From positions 1-64,000 of the IMG/VR virus record IMGVR_UViG_3300046519_000214: a stretch of DNA of 64,000 nt; one strand, given 5' to 3'. The notes beneath the pieces were generated by a model that saw only the letters and a program-made list of their open reading frames with translations, was not told the DNA's origin and ran no database searches. A program made the position numbers and the translations under genes. How positions within the stretch are numbered: position 1 is the stretch's first letter; each line of letters starts with the position of its first letter. The stretch comes from a virus. Shown here piece by piece: positions 3,451-59,161 of the stretch.

Positions 3451-4314
3451 TTAGGAGCCGAAGTTGGAGACGACGTTCTGGCGAGCCTTCATGACCGACC
3501 GGATCAGTGTCTTGCGGACATTGGCGTCAGATAGCGTGTCCTTGTTGACGTAGACCTTGGCGAGCCAAGAGATGGTCGACTTGCCGCTGAACCAGCCCTG
3601 CAGCTTCGGGTAGGTGCCCGAGGGGATCTTGCTGTAGGTGTAGAGCGGCTTGCCCTGACTATCCGGAGCGTCGTCGAAGTCCTTGTCGTTGACACCGACG
3701 AGGACCAAGTTGTCGCTGTAAAGCTCGTCGGCCGACCGCATTACGGAGTTGATGAGAGCAGCCGGTACCAGTGCGCACGTCGTCTGGTCGTTGGCGACGG
3801 CCGAGAGTGCATCATCACCACTTTCGGCAGTGGGGCGGACGCCAGAGTAGTCGCTGTCCTCCGAGATGAAGTTCTGCCAAATCAACCAGGCGCCCGAGCC
3901 ACGCTCGCCAAGAGCGATCGAATACTTGGTCGCGTCGTTTTCGAGACCCCCGATGTCAGTAATGCCAGAATTTTTTCCGCAGACTGCGGTTGCATATTCA
4001 CGGTGAAGGTCAGCGATCGGCAGGAACTTGGCGGCGTTGGCCGGCTCGGTTCGCTTGAGGTAAGCAAGAGCATCGGGCTGGGCGATAATTGCATCGCACT
4101 TGCCTTGGAGAGAGAGCTGGACGTTGCCCCAGCTACCACCAGTATCTTTAACGACTTCGACATCCAGGCCGTTCCCCTTGGCTTCGTCCTTGATGAGTTC
4201 GCCAGCTGCGGCGTAGGGTTGATCCGCGGCGCCAGTGCAGAGGCGGATGGTTGCGGCATGAGCAGGCACAGAAATGAGCAGCGCCGCTATGGCGCCGAGG
4301 AAAAATTTCTTCAT
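3451..4314 (-). CDS. TAXI-family TRAP transporter solute-binding (periplasmic) protein
   Basis: Signal peptide MKKFFLGAIAALLISVPAHA; TGA..Y, TGGSWGNV, D.IIAQPD, LHREY and GERGSG motifs typical of TAXI. Confidence 0.8.
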   Translation of the reverse strand: MKKFFLGAIAALLISVPAHAATIRLCTGAADQPYAAAGELIKDEAKGNGLDVEVVKDTGGSWGNVQLSLQGKCDAIIAQPDALAYLKRTEPANAAKFLPIADLHREYATAVCGKNSGITDIGGLENDATKYSIALGERGSGAWLIWQNFISEDSDYSGVRPTAESGDDALSAVANDQTTCALVPAALINSVMRSADELYSDNLVLVGVNDKDFDDAPDSQGKPLYTYSKIPSGTYPKLQGWFSGKSTISWLAKVYVNKDTLSDANVRKTLIRSVMKARQNVVSNFGS

Positions 4315-4385
4315 GGGATCTCCTGATGAAGTTGCGTGATTTTGGTAGTTGGTCCCCATGTTGGGGGACAATCCGTGATCGGCGG

Positions 4386-4400
4386 GAGTTCTGAGAACTC
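4386..4400. promoter_or_regulatory. palindromic operator-like box GAGTTCTNAGAACTC
   Basis: Perfect 7-1-7 palindrome; recurs at 18110, 18204, 20465 and partially at 62665. Confidence 0.6.
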
Positions 4401-4404
4401 GGGC

Positions 4405-4430
4405 AAAAAAAAGCCCGCTCGGGGCGGGCC
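4405..4430 (-). terminator. intrinsic terminator
   Basis: GCCCGC-CCCGA-GCGGGC followed by a T8 run on the minus strand. Confidence 0.75.
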
Positions 4431-4717
4431 TAGATGGGAATGTCTTCTGCGAAGTCTTGGGGTCGTGCCTTTCTCATTTCTCGCTGGACCTGCTCCAGCT
4501 GTTTCAATTTTCCGGAATTGCCCTTGCGTCGGCAGACCTCGATCGCGTTAGCGCGATGCTCGGGCGTCATGTCGTACATGTTGATCAGGCCCTCGGCCGA
4601 TCGCCACATGAAGTCGCCGCTTCCAGATTGATAGGTCGGTCGTCGCCGGCTGCGGCGGTGGTCATGGGCCACGCCGAAGATCATCCGGTCGATCATTTCG
4701 TCGGCCATTTCACCCAT
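4430..4717 (-). CDS. hypothetical protein (MGEMADEM... phage family)
   Basis: ORF in the operon; MGEMAD N-terminus is common in small phage proteins. Confidence 0.65.
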   Translation of the reverse strand: MGEMADEMIDRMIFGVAHDHRRSRRRPTYQSGSGDFMWRSAEGLINMYDMTPEHRANAIEVCRRKGNSGKLKQLEQVQREMRKARPQDFAEDIPI

Positions 4718-5078
4718 CGAGATCCTCCGTCACAACGTACCGACCCAGTCGGTACTTTCCGTTCCTGCTGTCCTGGCGAACGAACCAACCCTTCTCGGTC
4801 AGCTCGGGAAGGAGTTCGTTAATGGCGCGGAGGGCAATGAGCGCCCTCCCCGGTAGTGTTTCCCGGCGCCGCTGCTGTTCCTCGCGTTTGATCTCGCGAT
4901 GAACCATCTTCTGCAGATCGAGAATTTCGAACCAGGTTCGCTGTCCGCCACCCTTCCAACTCTTCACGAGAGGCCAGGTAATTGTCAGGAACTGCTCAGC
5001 GGTCGAAATACCATTGTTCCGCAGCAAGTTACCGGCTCGAACGCTCAATTCGAGCGTGTCGATGAAGGTGTTAGCCAT
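4710..5078 (-). CDS. RNA polymerase alpha-subunit CTD-like domain protein
   Basis: FIDTLELSVRAGNLLRNNGISTAEQFL resembles the alphaCTD signature IDDLELSVRSxNxLxxxGI. Confidence 0.7.
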   Translation of the reverse strand: MANTFIDTLELSVRAGNLLRNNGISTAEQFLTITWPLVKSWKGGGQRTWFEILDLQKMVHREIKREEQQRRRETLPGRALIALRAINELLPELTEKGWFVRQDSRNGKYRLGRYVVTEDLDG

Positions 5079-5607
5079 AATGCCGACCTTCAGCCTGATC
5101 CTGCTGGCTCCTGACATGGAACAAGTCCTTGAGTGCCTTGTCGACGAAGTCTCGGAGTTGAGCACGGAGACCATCCTTGAGGTGGGCGGTCACTGTGACA
5201 GCTTCGGCTTTGAGAAGTTTGGAGAAATCCTCACCGCAAGCCTTGAGCATCACGTATTGAGCGCGGGTCATGGCTGAACTGTAGGAGTCTTTGGTCTCCT
5301 TGCCGTTACTGTCTACCTTCTTCTCCCAGTAACCAGAGACGGCGTCTTCGAGCTGCTTCCGGATCGTCGTGGCCTCCCCCTGTGGTTGGCCCCAGGAATC
5401 GACACGCCGGTACTCACGGTCGAATCCATCTTCGACCGCCTGGTCGATTGCTGCACGGATCCGCACTTCGGCCTGTTCTTTGAAGAGAGTGTCGATGCGG
5501 GATTTGAACTCGACGTCGATCTGGCGAGTGTAGTCGCGATTTTCGAGAAGGCGCTCCACCGCGCTTTCAACGATTGCCTTTTCAATTGCTGCCTGGTTTA
5601 GTTCCAT
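5071..5607 (-). CDS. hypothetical phage protein
   Basis: 178-aa helical ORF with GGAG RBS. Confidence 0.7.
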   Translation of the reverse strand: MELNQAAIEKAIVESAVERLLENRDYTRQIDVEFKSRIDTLFKEQAEVRIRAAIDQAVEDGFDREYRRVDSWGQPQGEATTIRKQLEDAVSGYWEKKVDSNGKETKDSYSSAMTRAQYVMLKACGEDFSKLLKAEAVTVTAHLKDGLRAQLRDFVDKALKDLFHVRSQQDQAEGRHYG

Positions 5608-5613
5608 TTTCGG

Positions 5614-5648
5614 CTCCAAAACAAAAAGCCCCGGCGGTTGCCAGGGCT
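5614..5648 (-). terminator. terminator hairpin fused to the RBS of the next gene (repeat copy 1)
   Basis: AGCCCTGG-CAACCG-CCGGGGCT-TTTTGTTTT-GGAG; 33/35 identical to 7206..7240. Confidence 0.7.
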
Positions 5649-5706
5649 GTGAACGTTGATTATATTGCTGGAGCAAGGGACAGGACCGAAATCCTGCCCC
5701 CCGCTC

Positions 5707-5796
5707 TTAGATTACGAAGACGACCCGCACATCAGCCTGCCAGCCTGTGCGGGTTTTTCGTATCGTAAGAGTGAGGTTGATGGGTAAGAACCACAT
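5707..5796 (-). CDS. 29-aa peptide MWFLPINLTLTIRKTRTGWQADVRVVFVI
   Basis: GGAG RBS upstream, followed by a hairpin; not in the ORF track. Confidence 0.5.
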   Translation of the reverse strand: MWFLPINLTLTIRKTRTGWQADVRVVFVI

Positions 5797-5822
5797 CGCT
5801 CAACTCCAGTTTGAGGACCAGG

Positions 5823-6167
5823 CTATGCCCAGTCAGGAGAACCATTCTCCTGATGCACCTGGCAGGATGCGTCTGCTTCGGCCCCCAAAGACTCATGTGA
5901 CAGTTCTAGCTCATCCGGAGCCACGCTGTCGATGTACTCACTGTCCACCGACATATTTGTGGCTAGGCTCAGCTCCGGAAGCTCTGGATCGTCGAAGCTG
6001 CGTTCACTGACCGGTACACGGTCCTCGCCCACTTCGAACTCGTCGACTGGCATCTGCAGGCATTCATATCTGAGCTTGCGGAGCTTCTCGACTGCCTCTT
6101 CCGGCGTGGCCGCTCGGATGTAAGCCGTCGCCCAAACTTTCACGTCGATCGAATAGACGTTGGTCAT
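5823..6167 (-). CDS. hypothetical protein
   Basis: ATGA overlap with the upstream gene. Confidence 0.65.
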   Translation of the reverse strand: MTNVYSIDVKVWATAYIRAATPEEAVEKLRKLRYECLQMPVDEFEVGEDRVPVSERSFDDPELPELSLATNMSVDSEYIDSVAPDELELSHESLGAEADASCQVHQENGSPDWA

Positions 6168-7271: not shown

Positions 7272-7559
7272 TTAAATGTTCGCTCGGTCCATGAGCTCCT
7301 TGAGAGCCTCGGGGTACGAGAGCCGCTGCTCCATCGCCCAGGTCACAAACCGGTTGTAGGTGGAGATCGGCGGACGGATGTTGAGGTTGGCGGAAGGTTC
7401 GGCTTCCTTGCGGCGGACCACCTTCTGAATCGGCTCGCGTGAAACAAAACCGTGCTTCTCAGCCACTTCGTCGATCTTGCGATCGGGAACTTTTGGTTCG
7501 TCGTCGACATCCGGCTTGATTGCGCTGAGGGCACTAAAGCCCAAGTTCTTCCCGGTCAT
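7272..7559 (-). CDS. small partition/stability determinant (probable ribbon-helix-helix centromere-binding protein)
   Basis: 95 aa, coupled to parA by ATGA; AEKHGFVSRE followed by a C-terminal NLNIRPP...YNRF...ALKELM beta-helix-helix pattern. Confidence 0.75.
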   Translation of the reverse strand: MTGKNLGFSALSAIKPDVDDEPKVPDRKIDEVAEKHGFVSREPIQKVVRRKEAEPSANLNIRPPISTYNRFVTWAMEQRLSYPEALKELMDRANI

Positions 7560-8230
7560 GCTGCTTCTTTCTTCTGGACCACGAGGTTGACCAGCTCCTC
7601 AGCGAGGCGCAGGGCGTTCTCGCGGGCCTGGGGCACGCCGTTGACCTCTCCCTCGTCAAGCTCGTTTAGATCGAGCTGGTGGAAGAACATCGACTTGTAG
7701 GCGGCACGCTCGTTCAAGTGATTGTTGAAGGAAGGCACCTCCCCTCCCCTCAGCTGCGCCAGGATCGCTTTCTCAAGCTTGGTGGCAATGACCGGCGAGG
7801 TTCGAGTGAACAGGATCTGGTACGGGATCCGCTTCTCAAATGCCTGCTCCTCTTCCTGGATCAGGCGGATGGCCTTGGCGGCGAGCTCGGCGTCGGTGGG
7901 GCTGGCCTGGATGGGGATAACCACCATCTGGGCTCGTGCGAGTGCTCGGGACATCAGGCGGCTGGCTACACCTTCAAGATCGACGAAGACGAACTGGAAT
8001 TTCTTCCGGTACTCGTCGAGCTTGGAAGTGATGTTGCTTTCGTTCACGTCGCCGTCGACGATCACGGTGTTCTTCGAGGATCCACTACGCCAGCCGGTGA
8101 TTGGTTGGTTCGGATCACAGTCGAGGATGATGGTGGTGGCGCCCTGAGCGGCCAGTGTGGTGGCGAGAACGAGGGTCGTGGTCGACTTCCCTGCCCCACC
8201 CTTGGGGTTCGCTACGGCGATAACAGGCAT
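7556..8230 (-). CDS. parA: ParA-family partition ATPase (short, type Ib-like)
   Basis: Deviant Walker A NPKGGAGKST, LDCDPNQ, FVFVDLEG; no N-terminal HTH. Confidence 0.92.
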   Translation of the reverse strand: MPVIAVANPKGGAGKSTTTLVLATTLAAQGATTIILDCDPNQPITGWRSGSSKNTVIVDGDVNESNITSKLDEYRKKFQFVFVDLEGVASRLMSRALARAQMVVIPIQASPTDAELAAKAIRLIQEEEQAFEKRIPYQILFTRTSPVIATKLEKAILAQLRGGEVPSFNNHLNERAAYKSMFFHQLDLNELDEGEVNGVPQARENALRLAEELVNLVVQKKEAA

Positions 8231-8349
8231 GTGCGTCCTTCCTGATGAACGTTGTAGCGTCATGATGCGGCGGAACGCTTTACGAGACGTTAACGTGCAT
8301 CATAATGGTTCATGAAGCGTCTGCGTCAGAGTACGTTGACGTTGACGCA

Positions 8350-9793: not shown

Positions 9794-10681
9794 CTAAGCC
9801 GCCACCCCGTATTGCTCCTCGACCGAGATGAGGAAGTCGTCCGCCGTCATGCCCATGGCGAGCAGCAGTTCAGCTGCGAGCTCGGGGTACTCATAGACGA
9901 GGTCGTTCATGCTGAGATCAGCCGGTTCGCGTTGACGACGAGGGGCGTAGCGGTGGTCGACTTCTTCCTTCGGATCCCGCTCGACGACCAGGTTCTCCCA
10001 CCGCACCTGGAGCAGAGCTTCGCGGAGCGCCAGCAGGAACGGGATGTCCTGCTTCTCGTCCTTGTGGTGCTGGTGGAAGTAGCCGACCGACACGTTGGTG
10101 CATTCCGCGACCAGGTGGGGGTACTCGTTGGTGTCCGTGTAGACACCTTCGTCGGAGGGCTGGTAGCTACCGCCGAGCTCGGCCGCGAGGGACAGAGCGA
10201 AGGCATCGGAGGCTGTCCGCCGGCCGCACTGGTGGGTGATGATGTCGTCATAACCCATGCGGTCGAAGGCGATCGCAATGTCGATGTGTTCGAAGAACTC
10301 CGGGTTGTCCTTGGCCAACGCTCGCGAGCCCTGGCATCCCATCTCCTCACCGAAGTGGATAACGTAGACGCCCTCGATCCCAGCCTTGGCCATCTCGAGC
10401 ATCAGGAAGACGCCGGCAGTGTCGTCGGCGCCGAGGCAGTTTGCGTCGGTCTGCGTCAGGAACTGGCCGTCGAACTTTAGCGACTGGTTCCTGCCATCGA
10501 AGCGGTGGACCGTGTCCATGTGGCTGGAGAACAGGATCCGCGGCTTGTCACCGATCGTCCGCACCATGTTGCCATAGGCGTCCTTTCTGAACCCCTTCAG
10601 GTACTTGTTGACGAAGAGTTTCTCGGTCACGCCACCGGAGGGGCGCTGATACGAGAACATGTCGATGAGGGTATCCATCAT
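9794..10681 (-). CDS. M28/M20-type zinc peptidase
   Basis: SHMDTVH, LGADDTAGV, GEEMGCQGS, AFDR, YTDT, NVSVGY..QH. Confidence 0.85.
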   Translation of the reverse strand: MMDTLIDMFSYQRPSGGVTEKLFVNKYLKGFRKDAYGNMVRTIGDKPRILFSSHMDTVHRFDGRNQSLKFDGQFLTQTDANCLGADDTAGVFLMLEMAKAGIEGVYVIHFGEEMGCQGSRALAKDNPEFFEHIDIAIAFDRMGYDDIITHQCGRRTASDAFALSLAAELGGSYQPSDEGVYTDTNEYPHLVAECTNVSVGYFHQHHKDEKQDIPFLLALREALLQVRWENLVVERDPKEEVDHRYAPRRQREPADLSMNDLVYEYPELAAELLLAMGMTADDFLISVEEQYGVAA

Positions 10682-12207
10682 TATGCGGCTTCCTGAATTG
10701 GGAGTTCGAGTTGGTTCGGGTCCGGCGGGGTTTTGACGCAGGCCCCGATGTCACGCAGGTATTCCTCGAAGTCCTCCCGGTTGTGGAAGGATTTCATGTT
10801 TACCGATGTGTGATTGTCGAGTTTTACTTGCTGGTCTTCGTCTTCGTTGACGAACCATTCTTCGCTATACTCACAGAAGTAGCCGTGCTCTGCGGCGTAC
10901 TCTGTAGTATAGTGGTCCTCGTTGATGTCCACGACGTATTCGGTCTCAGCCTTCTTGTGCCAGGTGTTAGTGCCCTCGCACTTGAACCAGTCGCTGTTGT
11001 ACTCGACGTGATCCAGTGAGTAGTTTTCGTCTGTCTCGGTTTTCGCCAAGCGATGGTCAGGGTAATCCTCTTGCGAACCTTCGCAGAAGAAGTAACCCCT
11101 TGAGTAGCAATGCTCGCAGACCCGCGTTTCGCTGTACGAGATGTAGTAGTCCTCGTCCTCATCTATCCGAGCGTTGCAGTCGTCACACCGCCTACGCTCG
11201 ATTTCCTCGCTGAGACCGGTTGTGCCGTCGTGGCAGATGTCGCTCCCGATGCGGAAGTGATCACCGTAGTCGTCGACGCCATCACAGAAATCGAAGTAGG
11301 GGAGGACGAACCGGTCGTCCTTCGCCTCGATCTTTTGGATCCTGGCTCCACGCCAGCTGGAGCTCAGTGGCTCACGATAGCCAGCAGCCTGGAGCGCCGC
11401 TTCCATGCGAGACTCATCACCATAGATCGAGGTGTGAAACTTCTTCTCGGGCCATACAACGGAACGGGCGAGGGGCTGCTCGATCGAGCCGATGTAAGCG
11501 ACGGCCAGGTCTGGTCCAGCGTAGACACGGGCAGGGTGGCACGGGCCGTCATAGCTGTCGTCCGAGAACCACATGCAGGAGCCGAAGTGGCGAGCCTTGT
11601 AGATCTGCTCGATCTCGTCGGCGTCCTGGGTGATCCTCAGCGTCTTGAGATCAGTCCAGTTGCCCCACTCGTGGGCCAGCTCATGGATCTCAGTTTCGGA
11701 AAGAATGTCCCCGAAGAATTTCTTGAGAAAGCGTCCCGGCTTGATTGGGGTGCGGATGTTGCGTGCCCGCTTATCCAGGTTCTGGAAGTAGGCGACCGCA
11801 CCTGGCACCGTCTCGCTCGGCCGTGGCAGGAGCTCGACCCAGCGGAGGAAGTTCTCGCGGAACCAGTGGTGCCGGAGCCACGGGTTCCCCTCGAACGTCG
11901 TGGCGACTTCTTCCTCATGGAACTGCAGGCCTCCGTCCTTTGGCGGACGGAGCACGTGAATCTTCTGGCAGAAGTCGCTGTTCAGCGACGACACTTCCTT
12001 GAGACCGACGTAGGTCGTGCCCTGGAGCTCCAGTTCGCCATCCGTGGTCAACATGATGACCGATCGATATCGGGTCTCAATTCCGAAGGCCGCGTCGGAC
12101 AGTAGCTCCCCATGAGGCATGCTCACGGAGACGAGGTCGTCCCAACGTTCGGTATCTGGAGGCAGCACAAAGCCGCCCGCTGGTTTCACAGCAGGAGAAG
12201 CAATCAT
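10681..12207 (-). CDS. large phage protein with GSCM motif and C-terminal Cys-rich repeats
   Basis: KPGRFLKKF, HFGSCM, LARSVVW, LPYFD, then CDDC, CEHC, FCE repeats. Confidence 0.75.
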   Translation of the reverse strand: MIASPAVKPAGGFVLPPDTERWDDLVSVSMPHGELLSDAAFGIETRYRSVIMLTTDGELELQGTTYVGLKEVSSLNSDFCQKIHVLRPPKDGGLQFHEEEVATTFEGNPWLRHHWFRENFLRWVELLPRPSETVPGAVAYFQNLDKRARNIRTPIKPGRFLKKFFGDILSETEIHELAHEWGNWTDLKTLRITQDADEIEQIYKARHFGSCMWFSDDSYDGPCHPARVYAGPDLAVAYIGSIEQPLARSVVWPEKKFHTSIYGDESRMEAALQAAGYREPLSSSWRGARIQKIEAKDDRFVLPYFDFCDGVDDYGDHFRIGSDICHDGTTGLSEEIERRRCDDCNARIDEDEDYYISYSETRVCEHCYSRGYFFCEGSQEDYPDHRLAKTETDENYSLDHVEYNSDWFKCEGTNTWHKKAETEYVVDINEDHYTTEYAAEHGYFCEYSEEWFVNEDEDQQVKLDNHTSVNMKSFHNREDFEEYLRDIGACVKTPPDPNQLELPIQEAA

Positions 12208-12220
12208 AACGATTTCGCCT

Positions 12221-12544
12221 TTAGAGAGTGGTAGTCATCTGCCAGAGCTCGCGGAAGTGAGCTCGCATGGTCTTGACGTCGTCTTCCGATCGGTACGGGA
12301 CGTAGACGGTGACGAAGGATGCGGAGTGAACCTCGACGCTCGCGAGGCCGGGGTACGTGCCGGCGGCAAGGAACACGGCCGGCATGTTGGTCTTGGTGTG
12401 GAAGCTGATCGCAATCTGCGGTCGGCTGTCGCGGACCCGATACTTGAGCATCTCAGTGTTGAAGAGGCTCTGTTGCTTGTGCGTCTCGGCAAGGAGACCG
12501 GGATTTATCTTGCCATACGCGGAGCCATCACTGGTGACGTGCAT
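12221..12544 (-). CDS. hypothetical protein
   Basis: Overlaps the end of the upstream paralog. Confidence 0.6.
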   Translation of the reverse strand: MHVTSDGSAYGKINPGLLAETHKQQSLFNTEMLKYRVRDSRPQIAISFHTKTNMPAVFLAAGTYPGLASVEVHSASFVTVYVPYRSEDDVKTMRAHFRELWQMTTTL

Positions 12545-12857
12545 CGGATTTGGCCAGCTCGATCGCCTTGTCCCAAGCCTCGAGAACTTCGGCGTGAGTG
12601 TGCTTATCGTTGAAACTCACCATCCATCCGCCTGCGACACGGTCCAGAAGTCTTTTGACCTCGAACTTCAGGTCGAGTTGGTACCGACCCAGCACCTTGT
12701 GAACCGCGCCGATCGAGCAGAAGCACGTGGCCTTTGGATCCCAGGGATGCTCGACAGATTCGCCTGCCTTGTTGCGGGCAAGGGTTCGCTGCGTCCAGTT
12801 CTTCGGATCCGCGAGCAGTTCGCGGCCGGTGGTGAGGACTTCGAGAGGTGTGTTCAT
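12528..12857 (-). CDS. DUF6197-like protein, paralog 6
   Basis: DPKNWTQ..AR...ATCFCSIGA...FND.HTHAEV..AWDKA. Confidence 0.8.
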   Translation of the reverse strand: MNTPLEVLTTGRELLADPKNWTQRTLARNKAGESVEHPWDPKATCFCSIGAVHKVLGRYQLDLKFEVKRLLDRVAGGWMVSFNDKHTHAEVLEAWDKAIELAKSDARHQ

Positions 12858-13013
12858 GAGTTCAGGCTCCGGAGAACTTCGTTGATGTCGACCTCGTCGA
12901 ACTCGTCGAGGTCATTGGGGTAGGGGAGGTCGTCAGGGTGCTCATCCATGAGCTTTCCTTTTTTCTTGACATTGCCTCGCATGGTCACCACTGATTCGTT
13001 TCAGAGGTGGCTA

Positions 13014-13337
13014 ATGTTCGAGAGACTGTCCGTTCGAGAGGTGCTGGTTTGCATCGAAAAGCGCCGGGGCATCAGTATGCGCCGGCATTCCACGCTGGAG
13101 GATTTGGCCTACAGCTTGCTCTACCGCTGGCCTGATGATTGCCGCGGCAAGGAGTGGATAAGGGCACAGACGATGTGTCTGGAGGCTATGGAAGGGGTCC
13201 GAGATCCAGAGCAGGCTAGAGCCGCGTTCGTCGCCGCAGCCAATGCTGCGGAGATGCTCATGGTTCGTGAGGAGTACATTCAGGAGCGGCCTGAGAAGCG
13301 TTCCCGCCGAAATAGCCAGCGTCCTTCGCAGCCTTGA
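13014..13337 (+). CDS. DUF982-family protein (rhizobial)
   Basis: STLEDLAYSLLYRWP...AQTMCLEAMEG...ARAAFVAAA; TTGACA at 12966; opposite strand to its neighbours. Confidence 0.75.
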   Translation: MFERLSVREVLVCIEKRRGISMRRHSTLEDLAYSLLYRWPDDCRGKEWIRAQTMCLEAMEGVRDPEQARAAFVAAANAAEMLMVREEYIQERPEKRSRRNSQRPSQP

Positions 13338-13734
13338 GGGCTCGACGACCACCAGCCTCGGCTTGTGTCCAAGCGTTGGTGTCGAGGTAGTTCTGTGGTT
13401 CGTAGAACGCGAGGATGAAGTTGAGGGCGCCGGCCATCTGCTCGATCAGCTGGAAGCTGGCTCGGATTTGAGCGTGGTTGTCTGCCAGCCAGGTAACCGC
13501 CTCGTCGTTGTATCCTGCCCAATCCCGATTGCCATCCAGGTACCCTGGGTAGGTCTCTTCATCATAAGGCCGTCGATCTTGGGTCGGCGGCATCCCCTGC
13601 AGGGGAGGCGGGTTCGGAGCAGCCTGGACCATTGCTCGATACTTGGCGTCCAGATCCGACTTGGGATCCAAGTCGATTGCGGCCTTCGCCATGTCGAGTG
13701 TGGGCTCGAGGGGAACGAGTTTCCAGCTGGTCAT
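13258..13734 (-). CDS. hypothetical phage protein
   Basis: WKLVPLEPTLDM...YRAMVQAAP, a common phage module. Confidence 0.7.
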   Translation of the reverse strand: MTSWKLVPLEPTLDMAKAAIDLDPKSDLDAKYRAMVQAAPNPPPLQGMPPTQDRRPYDEETYPGYLDGNRDWAGYNDEAVTWLADNHAQIRASFQLIEQMAGALNFILAFYEPQNYLDTNAWTQAEAGGRRALKAAKDAGYFGGNASQAAPECTPHEP

Positions 13735-13910
13735 TTGATCTCCAGAACGTGGTCGACGTGCAGCTTGAATGATTTGTCGCTGCGCTCGCCTTTGACGGTG
13801 AGGTACTTGCGGACGGTCACGCGGGCATGGGTCTCGCCTCGCATGAACCAATCGGATGCAGGGTGGATGCGGATGCGGTCTCCGCGTTTGAAGTCCGAGA
13901 GTTCGAACAT
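13731..13910 (-). CDS. small SH3-like hypothetical protein
   Basis: FKRGDRIRIHPASDWFMRG. Confidence 0.6.
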   Translation of the reverse strand: MFELSDFKRGDRIRIHPASDWFMRGETHARVTVRKYLTVKGERSDKSFKLHVDHVLEIK

Positions 13911-13930
13911 ATTGACTCTTCCGTTAGCGT

Positions 13931-13945
13931 GAACGAAATAAGAAC
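13931..13945 (+). promoter_or_regulatory. alphaproteobacterial LexA (SOS) box
   Basis: GAAC-GAAATAA-GAAC (GAAC-N7-GAAC) ending 1 nt before the ATG at 13947, with TTGACT at 13912. Confidence 0.75.
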
Positions 13946-13946
13946 G

Positions 13947-14234
13947 ATGAAACATCGTCGAGGCGTAGATCTGATCCGCCCAAAGGCAGGCGAGATCCTT
14001 TACCTGGGGCCATTGATGGACCCAGTTCACACGACGTTTGACGATATTCCGGAGTGGCATGCACTGGGCGGTTACTGCCCGAAGTGCGAGCGTGAGGCGT
14101 GGCTCTTGAGATGGGAGCTGGCCAAAAAGTGGGGGCAGGGGGCTTACCTCGGATCACTCACCTCGCGATTGCGGTGCATTGGCTGTGGCAATCGCGAGGG
14201 GAACAAGTGGATCCTGGGTCAGCTGCCTCGCTAG
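13947..14234 (+). CDS. zinc-ribbon protein (CxxC...CxxC), probably SOS-regulated
   Basis: YCPKCER...LRCIGCGNR; LexA box upstream. Confidence 0.7.
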   Translation: MKHRRGVDLIRPKAGEILYLGPLMDPVHTTFDDIPEWHALGGYCPKCEREAWLLRWELAKKWGQGAYLGSLTSRLRCIGCGNREGNKWILGQLPR

Positions 14235-14515
14235 AGCTGGATCACCACAGGTTCGGTGTCAGGCCGGCGGTTCATCATCAGCATCTCGTAGGCTTCCCGA
14301 GTGTTCTGATACTGATTGCGGTCGTACTTCCGCATCACGAATTCAGCGAACTCGCGCTGAGTGTTGAAGCGGCCGAGGAGTGGTCCGTCGATTGTGCCGT
14401 TGCACATCCGGCTCCAGTCCGCGAAGTGGACCTTGTTCACCTCCGGATCGTGGATCGCGGTGATGACCTGGCCCTCTGCGGTGTAGAGGCGCTTAGTGTT
14501 GAAGGTGAGCTTCAT
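14231..14515 (-). CDS. hypothetical protein
   Basis: GAGGA RBS; coupled ORF. Confidence 0.65.
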   Translation of the reverse strand: MKLTFNTKRLYTAEGQVITAIHDPEVNKVHFADWSRMCNGTIDGPLLGRFNTQREFAEFVMRKYDRNQYQNTREAYEMLMMNRRPDTEPVVIQL

Positions 14516-14828
14516 TCGAGCATTCCTCTTCGATGTGCTTGATCAGCGTGTGAGGGGTGGTCTTCTTGAAGCTCGTGTACCCACACCAATAGTGGTCACC
14601 GATCTTCACGTATGTGGCGGCGATGTCGCCGGTCAGCATCTCGATCATGCGGAAGCCGCCGACGCAGTAGGCGGGAGGGAGCATCTCGAGGAACTCGTCG
14701 AAGATATCCCTGTCGATCATCCAGAACCGGCCGAGCATCTGTTCGGCCGGGAAACAGAACTTGTTGTATTCGTTCAGGTTCTCGAAGTGCTGGTGACGAT
14801 TGTTGCGGGCGCTAGGCAGCTGTTGCAC
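14493..14828 (-). CDS. hypothetical protein
   Basis: FDEFLEMLPP...FRMIEMLTG; start embedded in the 3' end of the upstream paralog. Confidence 0.65.
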   Translation of the reverse strand: MQQLPSARNNRHQHFENLNEYNKFCFPAEQMLGRFWMIDRDIFDEFLEMLPPAYCVGGFRMIEMLTGDIAATYVKIGDHYWCGYTSFKKTTPHTLIKHIEEECSNEAHLQH

Positions 14829-15144
14829 GGGCGAGCTCCCTTGCTTTGTCGAACATCGCCATCACCTCGGCGTGGGTCGTGACCGGTTGGTCGTTGAACT
14901 CGGGCACCGCTCCAACTCGGTGATCATTGAGGGCGCGGCCGAGCAAGTCGAAGGTGTCGTGATCATCAGGCACATGGCCGAGTACATGGCCGATCGCGCC
15001 GAGGGCGCAGAAGCAGATGGCTTCCGAACTGGTTGGATCGACTGCACCTCCATTGTCGTCGAATGCGAAGTCACCCTTGGCCCAATGTGCCGGATTGCGG
15101 ATCAGCTCCTGGGCAGCGGTCAGGATTTCAAGATTAGATTGCAC
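14812..15144 (-). CDS. DUF6197-like protein, paralog 5
   Basis: WAKG...AICFCALGA...FND...THAEV.AMFDKARELA. Confidence 0.8.
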   Translation of the reverse strand: MQSNLEILTAAQELIRNPAHWAKGDFAFDDNGGAVDPTSSEAICFCALGAIGHVLGHVPDDHDTFDLLGRALNDHRVGAVPEFNDQPVTTHAEVMAMFDKARELARATAA

Positions 15145-15433
15145 TGGCGATTTCCTTCGCGCGGTCCCACAGGTCGATGACCTCGGCGTGGGTGTGGGTG
15201 TCATTGAAAGCGATGATGCTGCCGCCTGCCAGCTTATCGAGGATGTCGATCGCGGGGAGGTAGGAGTAACCCTGGTCCGCCCTGTGCAGGGCGCCGACGG
15301 AGCAGAAGCAGGTGGCTCGTTTGATGGTGACTGGGAGACCCTGGTCGTCGACTGCGGCCATGCCCTGGATCCAATTCTTCGGATCGCGGATCAGATCCTG
15401 GGCGGCGTGGAGGAGCTCAAACGTGGTTTGCAC
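15134..15433 (-). CDS. DUF6197-like protein, paralog 4
   Basis: DPKNWIQG...ATCFCSVGA...FNDTHTHAEV. Confidence 0.8.
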   Translation of the reverse strand: MQTTFELLHAAQDLIRDPKNWIQGMAAVDDQGLPVTIKRATCFCSVGALHRADQGYSYLPAIDILDKLAGGSIIAFNDTHTHAEVIDLWDRAKEIASAI

Positions 15434-15770
15434 GGGCGAGCTCCCTTGCCTTGTCCCACACGGCCATGACTTGCTCATGAGTGTGCTCATCGTTGAACTC
15501 GTGGATGTAATTGAAACGTGAGCTCTCCGATGTCGCGTCGGTGAGGTAGCGGCGCGTCTCGTAAAACATGTCGAGTACATCCGTGGTCGAGAATACGCTG
15601 GGCTGGAGCACCCTATGGAGGGCGCCCAGGCTGCAGAAGCAGGTGGCGTCGGAGTCAGTGGCGTTACGCTCGAAGCCCTCGGGGTTGCGAGCGTAGACCT
15701 GCTGCGTCCAGTGAGCGGGGTCGCGGATCAGGTCTTGGGCTTCAGTCAGGATCTCATATGCGGTTTTCAT
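15417..15770 (-). CDS. DUF6197-like protein, paralog 3
   Basis: DPAHWTQ...ATCFCSLGA...FNDEHTHEQV.AVWDKARELA. Confidence 0.8.
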   Translation of the reverse strand: MKTAYEILTEAQDLIRDPAHWTQQVYARNPEGFERNATDSDATCFCSLGALHRVLQPSVFSTTDVLDMFYETRRYLTDATSESSRFNYIHEFNDEHTHEQVMAVWDKARELARANHV

Positions 15771-15933
15771 TGCCGGCCTTCTTCTGCTGGGCGTCGATCG
15801 CCTTCATGATGTTGATCTGCTTCTCAACTTCCTGAGGGCTCAACACGCCCGGGAAGCTCGAGAGCACTTTGGACACGGGGTCATGAGCAAGGGTCACTGG
15901 ACCCCTGCTGGTTTGTTCGATTGTGACCCTCAT
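15754..15933 (-). CDS. small hypothetical protein (59 aa) inside the paralog array
   Basis: MRVTIEQTSRGPVTLAHDPVSKV...; ATGA-coupled; not in the ORF track. Confidence 0.5.
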   Translation of the reverse strand: MRVTIEQTSRGPVTLAHDPVSKVLSSFPGVLSPQEVEKQINIMKAIDAQQKKAGNENRI

Positions 15934-16250
15934 GCGAGTGCGAGCTCCCTAGCCTTGTCCCAAGCAGCCATGACTTCCTCATGGGTGTTGTGATCGTTGA
16001 ACCCAGCGATACCCATCTCACCGGAGATCAAGTTGACGGCGCGGTAGAGGAACAGCCGTCCCTGTTGTCGCACTAGATCGTCACCGTCAGCTGCTTTGAT
16101 CAGAGCGCCGATCGAGCAGAAGCAGAAACCTTCTTCAGCTCCGCAGGGGTGTCCGCCCTCGGTTCGAGCGTAAGTGCCCTGGGTCCAGTGTTCTGGATCG
16201 CGGATGATGTCCTGAGCTGCGGTCAGGAGATTGTAGACGTCGGTGGTCAT
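15930..16250 (-). CDS. DUF6197-like protein, paralog 2
   Basis: DPEHWTQG.YAR...FCFCSIGA...FNDHNTHEEV.AAWDKARELALA. Confidence 0.8.
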   Translation of the reverse strand: MTTDVYNLLTAAQDIIRDPEHWTQGTYARTEGGHPCGAEEGFCFCSIGALIKAADGDDLVRQQGRLFLYRAVNLISGEMGIAGFNDHNTHEEVMAAWDKARELALA

Positions 16251-16585
16251 GCGAGTGCGAGCTCCCTTGCCTTGTCCCACATCGCCATCACTACCTCGTG
16301 GGTATGATTGTCGTTGAAATTGGGGACAGTGATCTCGAAGCCGGCCACCAGCTTGGAGGCGCGGTTCAGTATCGAACGTGCCGTCCTCCGATCGTCGGTG
16401 AGCGTCGGTTCGGCGTGGAAGAGGGCGCCCAGGCTGCAGAAGCAGGTGGCGTGCTCACTTTCGGGGGAGGCGAGGTAGCCCTGAGAGTCGAGGGCAAACT
16501 CACCCTGGATCCACGCTTCAGGATCGCGGATCAGGTCTTGGGCACGGGTAAGCAATTCGTGGACGGCGTTCGTCACGATGGTCAT
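16247..16585 (-). CDS. DUF6197-like protein, paralog 1
   Basis: DPEAWIQG...ATCFCSLGA...FNDNHTHEVV.AMWDKARELALA. Confidence 0.8.
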   Translation of the reverse strand: MTIVTNAVHELLTRAQDLIRDPEAWIQGEFALDSQGYLASPESEHATCFCSLGALFHAEPTLTDDRRTARSILNRASKLVAGFEITVPNFNDNHTHEVVMAMWDKARELALA

Positions 16586-16605
16586 CCTTTGATTGTGATT
16601 GGAGG

Positions 16606-16695
16606 GAGCAGTTTTCGATCTTGCTCAGGATCTTCTCGGGGGTGCCCGACTATTAGTCCCGGCGGGCTGCGGCGCAGCACTTTCGTGGCTGCTCT
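16606..16695 (-). other. structured RNA leader (two hairpins plus an H-type pseudoknot candidate)
   Basis: Minus strand: GCAGCCAC-GAAA-GTGCTGC; GCCCG..GACTA-A-TAGTC-GGGC; GATC-CT-GAGCA-A-GATC-GAAAAC-TGCTC. Confidence 0.45.
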
Positions 16696-16710
16696 ACGTA
16701 TCAGGGAGGG

Positions 16711-16938
16711 CTATGGTCCCTGAATTTCGGCCAGCTCCGTGGGTACGAAGCAGTATCGGTGTATTGGATCGTGGGCATTGCCCGTCAGCTGCTGCAGAAG
16801 CTTGACGCTTTCGACTGCCCACATCCCATCCTTCCCAGAGGAAGTGCGGTTGACCAGTTCGAGTCGGGTGCCCTTCGGTAGCGTGATGGCCGAGCCCCAA
16901 ATGGTCAGGGTGTGGTCCTGGCTCAGGATCGCCTTCAT
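16711..16938 (-). CDS. hypothetical protein
   Basis: Coupled ORF. Confidence 0.6.
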   Translation of the reverse strand: MKAILSQDHTLTIWGSAITLPKGTRLELVNRTSSGKDGMWAVESVKLLQQLTGNAHDPIHRYCFVPTELAEIQGP

Positions 16939-17351
16939 GCGGATTTCACCCATGGTAGAAATTGGTCGGGGATTTTGACGTTGGGCATCCAGCACAGTGG
17001 TTCTGACTGGATGTCTGCCGCGTTCATCCACTTGCCTTTCATGAAGGCACCCTGAATTGAGTAGACGAATGGACCGCTCTTGATCGCGAGGATGCAGTGC
17101 TTACCGTCCAGAGGGGCGGTTTCCATTGGTTGCCAGCCCACGGGGTTCACGCTCTCAACCTGGACCGTGAACTCACGGCTGACGCCGTCATCCTTGCTGT
17201 GGATCCCGTCGATGTAGCCGACGATCATGATTGGGATGCGGAGCTCCTCGGGGCACGGCCCCATTCGGGGTCGAGGTTCAAAGTGGTTGAACAGCTCATC
17301 ACGACCCTTCTTCACGTCGAGGATGGCGAATTCGGATTGGATCTTGATCAT
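16935..17351 (-). CDS. hypothetical protein with C-terminal WQPMETAP (DUF551-like) module
   Basis: GWQPMETAPLDG...EPLCWMP. Confidence 0.65.
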   Translation of the reverse strand: MIKIQSEFAILDVKKGRDELFNHFEPRPRMGPCPEELRIPIMIVGYIDGIHSKDDGVSREFTVQVESVNPVGWQPMETAPLDGKHCILAIKSGPFVYSIQGAFMKGKWMNAADIQSEPLCWMPNVKIPDQFLPWVKSA

Positions 17352-17608
17352 GCTGATGCTTTCCTTGCATTCATCTGTTCGCGGGTTTCGAACATGGGAT
17401 GACCGAGGCGAGGTTCGAAGTCTCGCTTCCAGTGAGCCAGGTTCATGTGGTCGAACTGGATCTGGACGCGGCAATCTTCGCAGTACCAGGAGTACGAGCC
17501 GTGGTTGTACCAAAGTGCTGGTGCGCTCTGGCAGCGTGTGCGGTTGCAGCTGCCGCCTTCCTTACCCTTGTCGGGCTTGTTGGGTCCGTCGTAATCACCG
17601 TATGCCAT
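17348..17608 (-). CDS. Cys-rich hypothetical phage protein
   Basis: KGKEGGSCNRTRCQ...WYNHGSYSWYCEDC. Confidence 0.65.
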   Translation of the reverse strand: MAYGDYDGPNKPDKGKEGGSCNRTRCQSAPALWYNHGSYSWYCEDCRVQIQFDHMNLAHWKRDFEPRLGHPMFETREQMNARKASA

Positions 17609-17799
17609 TAGTCGAATGGTCCGATCTTGGTTTGGGGTTCGAGGATCTGACACAGGATCGACTTCAGATCCTGGATCGTGGTCGCGGTCTGGGCTCGGAA
17701 GAGCAGATCCTCGGCTATGGCGATCTCTTTGGCGCGGTGCATCCCGAGTGTGGGTTGGAGTTCGCGGATCCGGTTCAGGATCTGGTTAGAAGCGGACAC
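17608..17799 (-). CDS. hypothetical protein
   Basis: Coupled ORF. Confidence 0.5.
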   Translation of the reverse strand: MSASNQILNRIRELQPTLGMHRAKEIAIAEDLLFRAQTATTIQDLKSILCQILEPQTKIGPFD

Positions 17800-18089
17800 A
17801 GTGACCTACCTTTCCGGCTCGATAGATCGGGGTCCATCGATCGCGGATCTGGATACAGGTCCACCAATAACCGTCGCTCAGGGCGAAGGCTTTCCAAGTC
17901 ATGGTTTTCTCCGAGGTTCTGGTTCGCGGATCTGGATCAGGTCCAGATGCGTGCTGGTTGACTCACAGCGAGTCACCAGCGCGTTTTGTGAGGGTGTCGA
18001 AGGGAATGCACCATGGAGGTGCCAGCGCTCGCCGCAGGGCGAATTTGACCACAGGGGTGGTTTGAACGGCCCCGTTTTTGAGGGCAACC

Positions 18090-18225
18090 AGTTTCCCTAG
18101 TCTCTCTTTAGTTCTTAGAACTTATTCTTTTTTCCCTGGAGTAAAGTAGAAAGAAAAAGAAGAGATATATAATAGGGGACCAACTCTAACATCTGAGCTT
18201 ACCTGAGTTCTTAGAACTCACACCT
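18090..18225. promoter_or_regulatory. AT-rich non-coding tract bounded by two GAGTTCTTAGAACTC-type boxes
   Basis: AGTTCTTAGAACT at 18110-18122, purine tract and TATATAAT, TGAGTTCTTAGAACTCA at 18204-18220. Confidence 0.6.
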
Positions 18226-18403
18226 CCACCACCGACTGGTCAACTGCGGACCCGAACCAGAGCCTGGTCCAACACCAACAATCCGCGATCCCGATCCAGC
18301 CCCCGGATCTCCACCGCAACCTCGCGGCTCCGGTTCAGGTCCGATAGCTCGCGGCTGGTTCTAAGACCAGCCGGAAAGCCATCCCTCACAATTGCGTATA
18401 GTT

Positions 18404-18604
18404 TCACAGTGCCAGCTCCCCGTACCGACGAGTACGCTTTTCGATCCGACGCTCGCGGCCCTTGCGGACCCGAGGCTTGAATTTCGTTACCTTGTCGTAG
18501 GCAATGCCCTGCAGGCTGAGCCATGCATGGGCATCGCGAAACGAGAATGCCTGCAATGAGCCGAGCATCCGGCCCTCAGAGTCCAGATACCAGAACTCTG
18601 TCAT
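18404..18604 (-). CDS. hypothetical protein
   Basis: MTEFWYLDSEG..., coupled. Confidence 0.55.
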   Translation of the reverse strand: MTEFWYLDSEGRMLGSLQAFSFRDAHAWLSLQGIAYDKVTKFKPRVRKGRERRIEKRTRRYGELAL

Positions 18605-57520: not shown

Positions 57521-59161
57521 TTATGCTTCACATGCCACACAGGACTCGTTCGATCGAGCCAGAGCCTGGGCCGGATTCGTCGACTCCTGATAATAGAGCG
57601 ACTTCAGACCGAGCTTGTGGGCCTTGAGGGTCAGACGCATCTGCTCCTTCGGCGTCACGTTCGGCGGCATCTTCAGGTTCAGGCTCTGACCCTGATCGAT
57701 GTAGCGACCACGAGCTGCGGCCTGTTCGATCACCTTGTCCATAGAGACCTCGCTGGCTGTCCGGAAGACGGCCTTCTCATGGTCCGTGAGGATGTCCAGG
57801 TGCTGAACCGAGCCCTCGCGAAGCAGGATCGAACGCCAGGTCTCAGCATTGTCCATGTTCTTCTGGCCGAGAACCTTCTCCAGGTACGGGTTGCGGAAGG
57901 TGAACTTGCCCTTCTGCAGATCCGGAACGAAGTAGTTGTTCTCGAACAGGCCGATGCCTTCAGAAGCTTGGCCGAGGATGAAGGCCGAGGACTTCGTCGG
58001 CGCGATCGCCATGGTGGTGCTGTTGCGGCGCTTGTAGTTGATCAGCATCTCCGGAACACCGTATTCTCGGCCGAGGAGCTCCGACGCCTCATAGGACTGA
58101 GCCTGCATCTGCTGGAAGATCTTGATGTTCAAGATCGAAGCTTCAGCGCTCTCGAACGCGATCATCTTGGACTGCAACAGCGAGTGCCAGCCGAGGATGC
58201 CGAGACCGAGGGCACGGTGATGCAGAGCGAAGCGATAGGAGCTGTCCATGAACGGCAGATCCTTCGTCTTCTCGATGTACTCGGACATGACGGCGTCGAG
58301 CAGATAGATGGCCACCTTCACCAGGTCGGTGTCCTTCCAGTCGTCATAGTGCAGCACGTTCAGGGAGAGCAGGTTGCAGACGAACGACTCTCTCGCCGTC
58401 GAGGGCAACATGATCTCGGTGCAGAGGTTGGACGACCAGATGGTCCGCTTCTGATCACGATAAACGTCCGCAGCGAAGCGATTGGCGTTGTCGTGGAAGA
58501 AGATGAACGGACGACCGTTGGCGCGACGGCGCTCGAGGATCTTGGCGAACACAGCCTGGTTGCGTTCACTGCCGGCGAAGGCGTCTTCCAGGAACTTGTC
58601 TGTGATGGATACGGCTGGCTGGACGTTCTGCAGCGGGCTGGCCTTCGTGCGGATCGTCAGATGTTCGTCGATGTCAGGGTGATCGGCCGGCAGGTAGACG
58701 GCGATCGAGCCACGGCGGACATTCGACTGGCTCACCACGGACGTTGTCGTTTCCGCCATCTGCATGAAATGGACAGCACCATAGCTCGAGCCGCCACCAG
58801 AGATGCCAGCGCCACGTCCACGGAGAGCACCATAGTAGGCAGAGGTGCCGGCGCCGTACTTGGTCTGGGCACCGATCTCGGCCGTCTTCAGCAGGATGCT
58901 GTCCATGGTATCGTCCATGAAGACGTTGTTGCAGCTGATCGGCAGGCCACGGGCGAGACCGAAGTTCGACCAGATTGGCGACGACAGGCTCATCCAGCCA
59001 TTCATCAGGTACTCGGAGATCTTCTTTCCGATGTCAGGGCGATCGAGGATCTCCCCTGCCCGCTTGCCGACCTCAGCAATGCGGTCCTCTACGGACACTG
59101 CCTCCCGCAGATATCCGCGGGAGAGAAACTTACGGGTGTCATCGGTAATCCAGGTGGTCAT
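57521..59161 (-). CDS. nrdA: ribonucleotide reductase class Ia alpha subunit (no ATP cone)
   Basis: PISC, SNLCTEI, VCNL, AIAPTKSS, DQGQSLN, KSLYY, C-terminal CVACEA. Confidence 0.95.
   Translation of the reverse strand: MTTWITDDTRKFLSRGYLREAVSVEDRIAEVGKRAGEILDRPDIGKKISEYLMNGWMSLSSPIWSNFGLARGLPISCNNVFMDDTMDSILLKTAEIGAQTKYGAGTSAYYGALRGRGAGISGGGSSYGAVHFMQMAETTTSVVSQSNVRRGSIAVYLPADHPDIDEHLTIRTKASPLQNVQPAVSITDKFLEDAFAGSERNQAVFAKILERRRANGRPFIFFHDNANRFAADVYRDQKRTIWSSNLCTEIMLPSTARESFVCNLLSLNVLHYDDWKDTDLVKVAIYLLDAVMSEYIEKTKDLPFMDSSYRFALHHRALGLGILGWHSLLQSKMIAFESAEASILNIKIFQQMQAQSYEASELLGREYGVPEMLINYKRRNSTTMAIAPTKSSAFILGQASEGIGLFENNYFVPDLQKGKFTFRNPYLEKVLGQKNMDNAETWRSILLREGSVQHLDILTDHEKAVFRTASEVSMDKVIEQAAARGRYIDQGQSLNLKMPPNVTPKEQMRLTLKAHKLGLKSLYYQESTNPAQALARSNESCVACEA

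Follow-up and report, generated by a model that had tools for sequence, protein, structure and literature searches.

Diverged DUF6197 paralogs of a rhizosphere phage form an array that appears to be rebuilt by recombination

Multigene families change by birth-and-death, by unequal crossing-over and by gene conversion. A viral form of copy number change is known from the genomic accordions of poxviruses (K3L-type), which consist of a transient amplification of near-identical copies (PMC9973261). DUF6197 is a very large, mostly viral protein family, which has repeatedly been multiplied by phages and which is catalogued but has no solved structure and essentially no literature. The sole paper found in the literature that names it deals with cluster A15 Gordonia phages, in which one DUF6197 copy is located next to DNA polymerase I and a second copy elsewhere, and in which sister phages carry a two-domain tandem fusion (PMC10586128). 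Here we analysed a stretch of 64,000 nucleotides (nt), in the following called the window, which comprises the first 64 kb of the 80,553-bp IMG/VR virus record IMGVR_UViG_3300046519_000214 (estimated completeness 98%). This ~80-kb rhizosphere phage carries six DUF6197 genes on the minus strand. The locus probably unites six DUF6197 subtypes of ancient origin that are recombined at shared blocks and that likely serve as a repertoire for host interaction. New here is a strain-resolved picture of the rebuilding of such an array, precise to the single gene unit.

After correction of the starts of the open reading frames (ORFs) the six proteins have 99–117 amino acids (aa). Five genes (A to E) are packed in one array together with two ORFs that are not paralogs, and the sixth (F) is found ~2 kb away in a separate overlap chain. 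The genes were compared to those of relatives designated L001, L002, L003 and contig 82238, and to those of a strain represented by a contig from metagenome run X18 (the X18 contig). The members of the locus are listed from the start of the array onwards.

16247..16585, minus strand: copy A, 112 aa, with which the array begins; PF19698 score 51.8 bits; AF2 model with a predicted local distance difference test score (pLDDT) of 97
15930..16250, minus strand: copy B, 106 aa; absent in L003 and in the X18 strain
15754..15933, minus strand: 59-aa ORF between B and C, not a paralog; position conserved in L001 and L003 (tblastn identity 49–69%)
15417..15770, minus strand: copy C, 117 aa; absent in L003; its slot in the X18 strain holds 353 other letters
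15134..15433, minus strand: copy D, 99 aa, GTG start; orthologs in L003 (72% aa identity) and in contig 82238 (P0010)
14812..15144, minus strand: copy E, 110 aa, with GTG as start codon; missing in L003 and in the X18 strain
14493..14828, minus strand: 111-aa ORF after E, not a paralog; starts at a GTG within the 3′ block of E; 59–61% identical in L001 and L003
12528..12857, minus strand: copy F, 109 aa, isolated from the array

All six copies are true members of Pfam DUF6197 (PF19698) and of PHROG 762, and they do not differ at the family level; with 99–117 aa they also fit the single domain of ~100–115 aa that characterises its members. Their PF19698 scores are 47.4–65.6 bits, or 46.7–65.4 bits in a six-frame search of the whole record, at a gathering threshold of 24.6 bits, and each copy matched phrog_762 with E-values from 4e-18 to 4e-10. 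Exactly six copies were detected in the 80,553-bp record by the six-frame family search, and no weaker DUF6197 relatives were found in it by a permissive hidden Markov model (HMM) search. Searches of NCBIfam and PADLOC gave no meaningful match. The copies share 36–51% aa identity, measured pairwise against A. Three parts are conserved in the alignment, namely helix 1 with L..AQDLIRDP..W.QG, the motif CFCSxGA and the C-terminal FND..TH.EV...WDKA.ELA, and six residues (W25, C50, G53, A54, N91, D92) are invariant across the six copies. Two segments, at about residues 27–46 and 56–88 in the numbering of A, differ strongly in sequence and length. The original prediction, which had been made from the letters of the window alone, had described six DUF6197-like paralogs of 100–117 aa, five of them nearly tandem, with these shared motifs and two variable internal segments. 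Apart from the slightly corrected length range this description was confirmed.

The number of copies is not invariant: syntenic relatives possess 1, 3, 4 and 4 DUF6197 genes, compared to 6 in the window. The order of the units in the window and in three of the relatives is as follows.

Window: A-B-59aa-C-D-E-111aa ... F; 6 copies
L003 (49-kb fragment, ~82% DNA identity): A-like, 59aa, D-ortholog, 111aa ... F-ortholog; 3 copies
L002: three tandem copies and the F-ortholog; 4 copies
L001: one copy, F absent; 1 copy

B, C and E are missing from L003, and each missing unit is exactly one gene. The A-like gene of L003 ends with ...AAGGCACTCGCATGA and leads straight into the 59-aa ORF, which runs into ATGCAAACC, where D starts. 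The end of D in turn reads ...ATCGCCAGTGCA and leads into the 111-aa ORF. All unit endpoints of L003 fall in the overlap blocks CTCGCATGA or CGCC(A/C)GTGCA.

The strongest evidence of turnover is at the strain level and comes from public rhizosphere metagenomes, at least 17 runs of which contain the window stretch; none of the listed runs is recorded as RNA. Over window positions 12000-14515, F included, the X18 contig (27,685 nt, depth 13.5) differs in 20 of 2,516 letters (99.2% identical), and with positions 14515-16944 it shows only a patchy alignment. In this part the 5′ portion of A leads into a core closer to C, to which the 59-aa ORF is joined without a gap unit, and B is thus absent. 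The C slot contains the 353 other letters, which end in a DUF6197 3′ block, and D is present with a diverged middle. The 443 nt holding E are replaced by 127 letters; E is absent and, as in L003, the 111-aa ORF comes straight after D. The X18 strain thus has 4 DUF6197 copies. Contigs with the variant letters of the X18 contig were also found in run X16 at a depth of ~5, beside the window type at a depth of ~11–14. Four DUF6197 proteins of contig 82238, which has 82,238 bp (P0016, P0098, P0010 and P0003, the last being F with 98% identity) fit the X18 architecture, with P0098 as the presumed C-slot unit. Some apparent joints are cross-matches between paralogs, e.g. from 12543 to 15165 with only 30 nt on one side, and were not counted as deletions. 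Judged from these genomes and contigs, the array appears to turn over fast by recombination while its flanks stay ~99% identical. Such rebuilding between nearly identical flanks is the pattern expected for genes in phage-host conflict.

Two further observations concern L003. Its gene at the A position (5548-5844, plus strand) is without the entire hairpin segment (~13 residues) and without 12 nt (R-E-L-A) of the C-terminal motif; the frame is still open, and the invariant Cys and the Asn-Asp pair are kept. Upstream of the array a 146-aa ORF (4289-4729, plus strand) contains CCLGHAC ... WNDESN and has no counterpart in the window at the HMM level.

A maximum-likelihood tree was built with 36 copies, taken from this phage and three syntenic relatives as well as from metagenomic or Rhizobium homologs. 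In this tree none of the window copies has another one as its sister. F forms a clade (support 99/96) with the genes found at the F position in L002, L003 and contig 82238, and two proteins of Rhizobium ruizarguesonis belong to it, too. D groups with copies of L003 and contig 82238 (100/99), E with three other copies (96/90), and A pairs with P0006 of a 14-kb contig (contig 14164; 99/99). Between the paralogs the synonymous divergence (dS) is 0.67–2.55 and the non-synonymous divergence (dN) 0.51–0.73, with synonymous sites near saturation. Because of these high dS values, the lack of sister copies within the window and the clades with copies of other phages, the array is an assembly of ancient subtypes common to several phages and no recent amplification.

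In the original prediction the locus had been regarded as a gene accordion. Such an accordion, in which one gene would have been amplified recently under strong selection and the array expands and contracts as the copies diverge, agrees with the variation of copy number among close relatives and with the near-identical 3′ blocks that flank B and the D-E pair. It is nevertheless highly improbable as an account of this array, as the paralogs are only 36–51% identical at the dS values given above and A, D, E and F have closer relatives in other phages than within the window. Furthermore, strains differ by replacement with unlike units and not by the count of like units.

Differences between relatives also extend to the interior of genes. 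In the first gene of the array residues 1–26 are 77–88% identical between the window, L003 and contig 82238, compared to only 23–38% for residues 27–88. F and its L003 counterpart are 90–100% identical over the first 60 nt, and most of the downstream gene is 93–100% identical; the interior of F (12804-12540) is a patch of 50–80% identity between these 90–100% identical flanks. Since dS is ~1 within the patch and 0.13–0.16 in the flanks, the interior of F is a replaced allele and not a product of locally fast protein evolution. Ortholog dN/dS over whole genes is 0.28–0.44. By segment, the values are 0.06–0.34 for conserved parts and 0.29–0.78 for variable parts, and they never exceed 1 in reliable ortholog pairs, at low power. 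Positive selection on the variable loops, which had been suspected to diversify, is not shown by these values.

Traces of exchange may also be present within the window, where the paralogs share three pairs of long identical blocks.

16247..16267, minus strand: block AGGGAGCTCGCACTCGCATGA of 21 nt at the A terminus, identical at 15930-15950 at the B terminus; holds the Shine-Dalgarno (SD)-like run, the next start and the stop
15428..15449, minus strand: block GCAAGGGAGCTCGCCCGTGCAA of 22 nt at the C terminus of the gene C, identical at 14823-14844 at that of E; holds the SD-like run and the next GTG start
16421..16452, minus strand: block of 32 nt that spans the CFCSLGAL core in A; the same letters at 15618-15649 in C

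The first two pairs had been pointed out in the original prediction, which missed the third as well as a 20-nt identical block shared by B and F. The final 33 nt of A and B differ in one letter. As a null model the six protein sequences were kept fixed and synonymous codons were redrawn from the phage's own usage in 300 simulations. An exact run of ≥21 nt occurred in 7% of the simulations, and two or more such pairs in none of the 300, compared to 3 observed pairs. The identity of the blocks is thus beyond chance, and some process, be it selection or an exchange in recent time, acts on the nucleotides themselves.

The ends of the genes have a second role, as the start of the next gene is placed within them. 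A/B and B/59-aa ORF are joined by ATGA overlaps, D and E overlap by 11 nt, and overlaps of 17 nt are found for C/D, for E/111-aa ORF and for F and its downstream 107-aa gene. Along the array the overlaps thus measure 4, 4, 17, 11 and 17 nt, and at its junctions each start is preceded at 7–11 nt by a GGAG or AAGGA run, so that a translational-coupling architecture is present. It had been claimed that the C-terminal coding DNA doubles as ribosome binding site (RBS) and start codon of the following gene. Indeed, both the SD-like run and the start codon of the next gene lie inside the conserved C-terminal codons (helix K-A-R/K-E-L/I-A). The K-A-R-E codons of A, B, C and E read AAG GCx AGG GAG and give AGGGAG, which is separated from the next start by 7 nt in C and E and by 11 nt in A and B. 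D carries AAGGAA and F only AAGG.

Shared stop/start coordinates were found throughout the phage genome. Likewise, 41 DUF6197 ORFs were compared, which come from 23 sources (this record and 22 loci of other records), and the majority of them share 4, 8, 11, 17 or 20 nt with the gene downstream. Since overlaps are this common in the phage and at DUF6197 genes elsewhere, the stop/start self-coupling is not a special device of the array. The idea that any unit is coupled automatically holds in so far as gain and loss of units leave the overlap architecture intact, but the overlaps are general. A promoter and terminator scan of 12000-18600 gave results at or under shuffle expectation.

One possible source of the identical junction blocks, which we consider somewhat unlikely, is selection for translational coupling, with the gene end acting as a portable module of RBS and start codon. 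In line with this, the Arg of K-A-R-E is encoded by AGG or CGG in 5/5 array genes (window and L002), which completes GGGAG, and these codons account for about 28% of the Arg codons of the phage (AGG 9%, CGG 18%). The five codons are, however, not independent, and AAGG stems from the K-A dipeptide, which is a family motif at the protein level. In relatives the SD-like run 7–11 nt before the start is kept despite letter changes, but exact identity is not: CGG is found for AGG, and TTG or ATG for GTG. Moreover, overlaps are general across the genome, and a block at least as long is found in the CFC core, where no junction exists. As the longest block is off-junction and the junction letters of relatives differ, a recent crossover or gene conversion would explain the identity more simply than selection acting letter by letter.

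For the locus as a whole we favour recombination at the shared blocks. The paralogs have short, nearly letter-identical stretches of DNA at the 5′ AQDLIRDP helix, in the CFC core and at the 3′ end, and the comparison of related phages revealed differences by gene units or gene interiors with endpoints in these stretches. Ordinary homologous or short-homology recombination at the blocks could take place between paralogs and between co-infecting relatives, and would add, delete or swap units in register. Because exchange at the blocks is in register, every recombinant would stay in frame and still overlap the gene that follows. Neither a dedicated recombinase nor a recombination site would be involved. 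In the whole record neither a reverse transcriptase (RVT_1) nor a tyrosine recombinase (PF00589) was matched. The junctions have no inverted repeats, and the sole inverted repeat in 14700-16700 sits inside gene C.

Two dedicated systems were considered and rejected. A target of a diversity-generating retroelement was dismissed because of the missing RVT_1 match and because the differences between the variable segments include indels and all base classes. An integron-like cassette system was dismissed because of the lack of inverted repeats at the junctions and of PF00589 in the record.

With 120 homologs as input, AF2 gave a confident model of A (pLDDT 97, predicted template modelling score 0.89). 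Its predicted elements are a helix (7-18), a hairpin (31-33 and 46-49) and four further helices (51-58, 64-81, 87-92, 96-111). In the model helix 2 begins with Cys50, helix 4 closes with Asn91-Asp92, and helix 5 begins with His96, two residues past the Thr. The profile matched nothing in a sequence search of the PDB, and no solved fold was matched by Foldseek against the PDB (best E-value ~1). Matches in BFVD were uncharacterised phage proteins only (template modelling score, TM, 0.74–0.84; E-values 7e-7 to 2e-4), and the model thereby has the fold predicted for DUF6197 proteins of other phages. The structural neighbour in the Atlas was a DUF6197 cluster (TM 0.84), and after removal of the DUF6197 clusters the Atlas search gave a best score of 0.75 and no lead. 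The anticodon-binding domain of GluRS (best VIA Z, 6.2) and an HDOD-like protein (Z 5.4) were rejected as relatives, as such Z values are common for helical domains.

Across the 41 diverse ORFs the Trp, the second Cys, Gly-Ala and Asn-Asp are kept in 40–41, the Cys, Gly-Ala and Asn-Asp being invariant in 41/41. The first Cys is present in 37/41 and the His in 32/41, with Phe or Gln at this position elsewhere. A metal site composed of CxC plus His, as had been suspected, is therefore not a feature of the family; of the potential Cys2-His ligands only the second Cys is invariant. The conserved residues could alternatively belong to a small Cys-dependent enzyme, in which the invariant Cys would be the nucleophile, assisted by Asn-Asp and usually by the His, and in which the variable segments would set the modified host molecule. 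The conservation pattern and the modelled positions of Cys at the N-terminus of helix 2 and of His at the start of helix 5 are compatible with this. Nevertheless, an enzymatic role appears rather unlikely, as no solved enzyme was matched structurally (Foldseek E ~1; the VIA Z of 6.2 is in the noise range), ~100 aa is small for an enzyme, and some members have Phe or Gln in place of the His.

With our profile the family spans ~29,800 clusters at 50% identity, with 29,782 proteins matched at E ≤1e-3 among 1.84 billion representatives. Many members are two-domain fusions, and P0150 has three domains. In a metagenomic protein of 990 aa (P0212) nine DUF6197 stretches were matched in one polypeptide. 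These proteins suggest that arrays can fuse into multi-domain proteins. An informative fusion partner was found neither by a search for longer forms nor by a Pfam scan of long matches, which detected DUF6197 repeats only.

According to these fusions one may ask whether the six proteins are parts of one hetero-oligomer or multi-domain machine, e.g. a replication accessory, with the array as the split version of a fused form. Natural fusions with 2, 3 and up to 9 domains would fit, as would the tight translational coupling, which favours equal dosage, and in other phages the family adjoins DNA polymerase (PMC10586128) or primase. A fixed complex is on the other hand ill-suited to the replacement of units between 99%-identical strains, syntenic relatives get by with 1, 3 or 4 copies of differing subtype make-up, and F is encoded 2 kb away in a separate overlap chain. 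We therefore regard this explanation as quite unlikely.

Most likely, the set of proteins serves as a repertoire for host interaction, e.g. counter-defence or takeover, and does not have a core replication or virion function. Each protein would be a small cytoplasmic domain with a beta-hairpin and five helices. What a copy binds or acts on would depend on its two variable segments, namely the hairpin and the region of helix 3. Several points weigh against this proposal and against recombination at the blocks. No annealase of the RecT, Erf or AAA_24 (Sak4-type) families was matched in the record. The identical junction blocks may be young footprints of recombination or gene conversion and not functional handles. 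Each unit difference is readable as gain or loss, and the breakpoints in contig 82238 and in the X18 contig are resolved only to within aligned pieces. The dN/dS values, which are <1 everywhere, fit plain purifying selection with relaxed loops. Finally, DUF6197 fusions of 2–9 domains fit domains working together equally well as independent binders.

The array is located in a leftward replication/accessory arm, which also encodes a Prim-Pol/D5 primase-helicase, a PAPS-reductase-like protein, an M28-like peptidase and a ParA/VirC1-like ATPase (7556-8263, minus strand). Ribonucleotide reductase genes are found beyond the virion genes (57521-60126, minus strand). The large terminase is 40–44% identical to those of ~80-kb siphoviruses, e.g. 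Caulobacter phage Seuss and Achromobacter phage JWF. The closest DUF6197 homologs were located on contigs of 82,238, 83,005 and 14,164 bp. DUF6197 homologs occur on 80–83-kb contigs of Rhizobium isolate assemblies and the record contains no integrase, which, together with the ParA/VirC1-like ATPase, makes it plausible that the phage is a Rhizobium phage-plasmid (plasmid-like prophage). Megablast against phages and tblastn against plasmids matched nothing, and a scan of genome contigs gave one Brucella locus as single match. In cultured phages the family is found with small early genes close to primase or helicase. In Xanthomonas phage DMF5-T1 the homologs are located among small hypothetical genes upstream of primase and helicase genes, and in Pseudomonas phage pf16 among small hypothetical genes ~3 kb into the record.

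Of the two ORFs within the array that are not paralogs, the 59-aa ORF matched neither Pfam nor PHROG, and the sole Pfam signal of the 111-aa ORF was a weak match to DUF1419 under the cut-off. Between array and F an antisense gene of 135 aa with two CxxC pairs (CPKCERE...CIGCGN) is embedded in the leftward chain (13827-14234, plus strand). In L002 and L003 it is 60–84% conserved and likewise opposed to the chain, and thus represents a real gene and no shadow ORF. An X16 contig (depth 11.7) joins 13450 to 14235 and thereby skips 784 nt (13451-14234), which hold this antisense gene, a 109-aa gene and part of a 197-aa ORF. As L001 is without the same genes, the region seems to be a second indel-prone spot. 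Directly downstream of the F unit a 508-aa protein (10681-12207, minus strand) with a Cys-rich C-terminal half is encoded, which matched neither Pfam nor PHROG and is 46–82% conserved at this position in L001, L002 and L003.

The locus supplies material for tests, as it offers six naturally occurring variants of a single scaffold as well as natural chimeras, and an invariant Cys and Asn-Asp that could be mutated. If a function such as inhibition of defence was found, tens of thousands of phage genes would be annotated together. A more far-reaching proposal, which we put forward only as a speculation with a rather low likelihood, is that DUF6197 arrays in general are a recombination-ready repertoire of counter-defence or host-takeover binders, with the conserved blocks at the 5′ helix, in the Cys core and at the overlapping 3′ end as built-in handles for exchange between co-infecting phages. 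They would then be a phage counterpart of cassette-based antigenic variation, swapping interiors and whole units in frame without a dedicated recombinase, in a family that ranks among the largest unstudied ones of phages.

Compared to known systems, the multiplicity of DUF6197 with indel variation among close relatives is shared with the A15 Gordonia phages. These are, however, actinophages with two copies instead of six, and junctions or recombination were not analysed there. Like the poxvirus accordions, the locus is a viral tandem array whose copy number shifts between close strains by recombination between repeats; unlike in poxviruses, the copies are ancient subtypes, and strains lose or replace unlike units. 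With integron cassette arrays it has in common that single-gene units are gained or lost at defined junctions, but here the junction blocks are the family's own coding sequence, and inverted-repeat sites and a tyrosine recombinase are lacking. Birth-and-death families resemble it in diverged tandem paralogs, unit-precise gain and loss, chimeras that break in conserved blocks, and short identical tracts. The difference to these families lies in the phage setting, in which exchange within one genome is probably supplemented by that with co-infecting relatives, and in the overlap architecture, which would keep every recombinant translationally linked.

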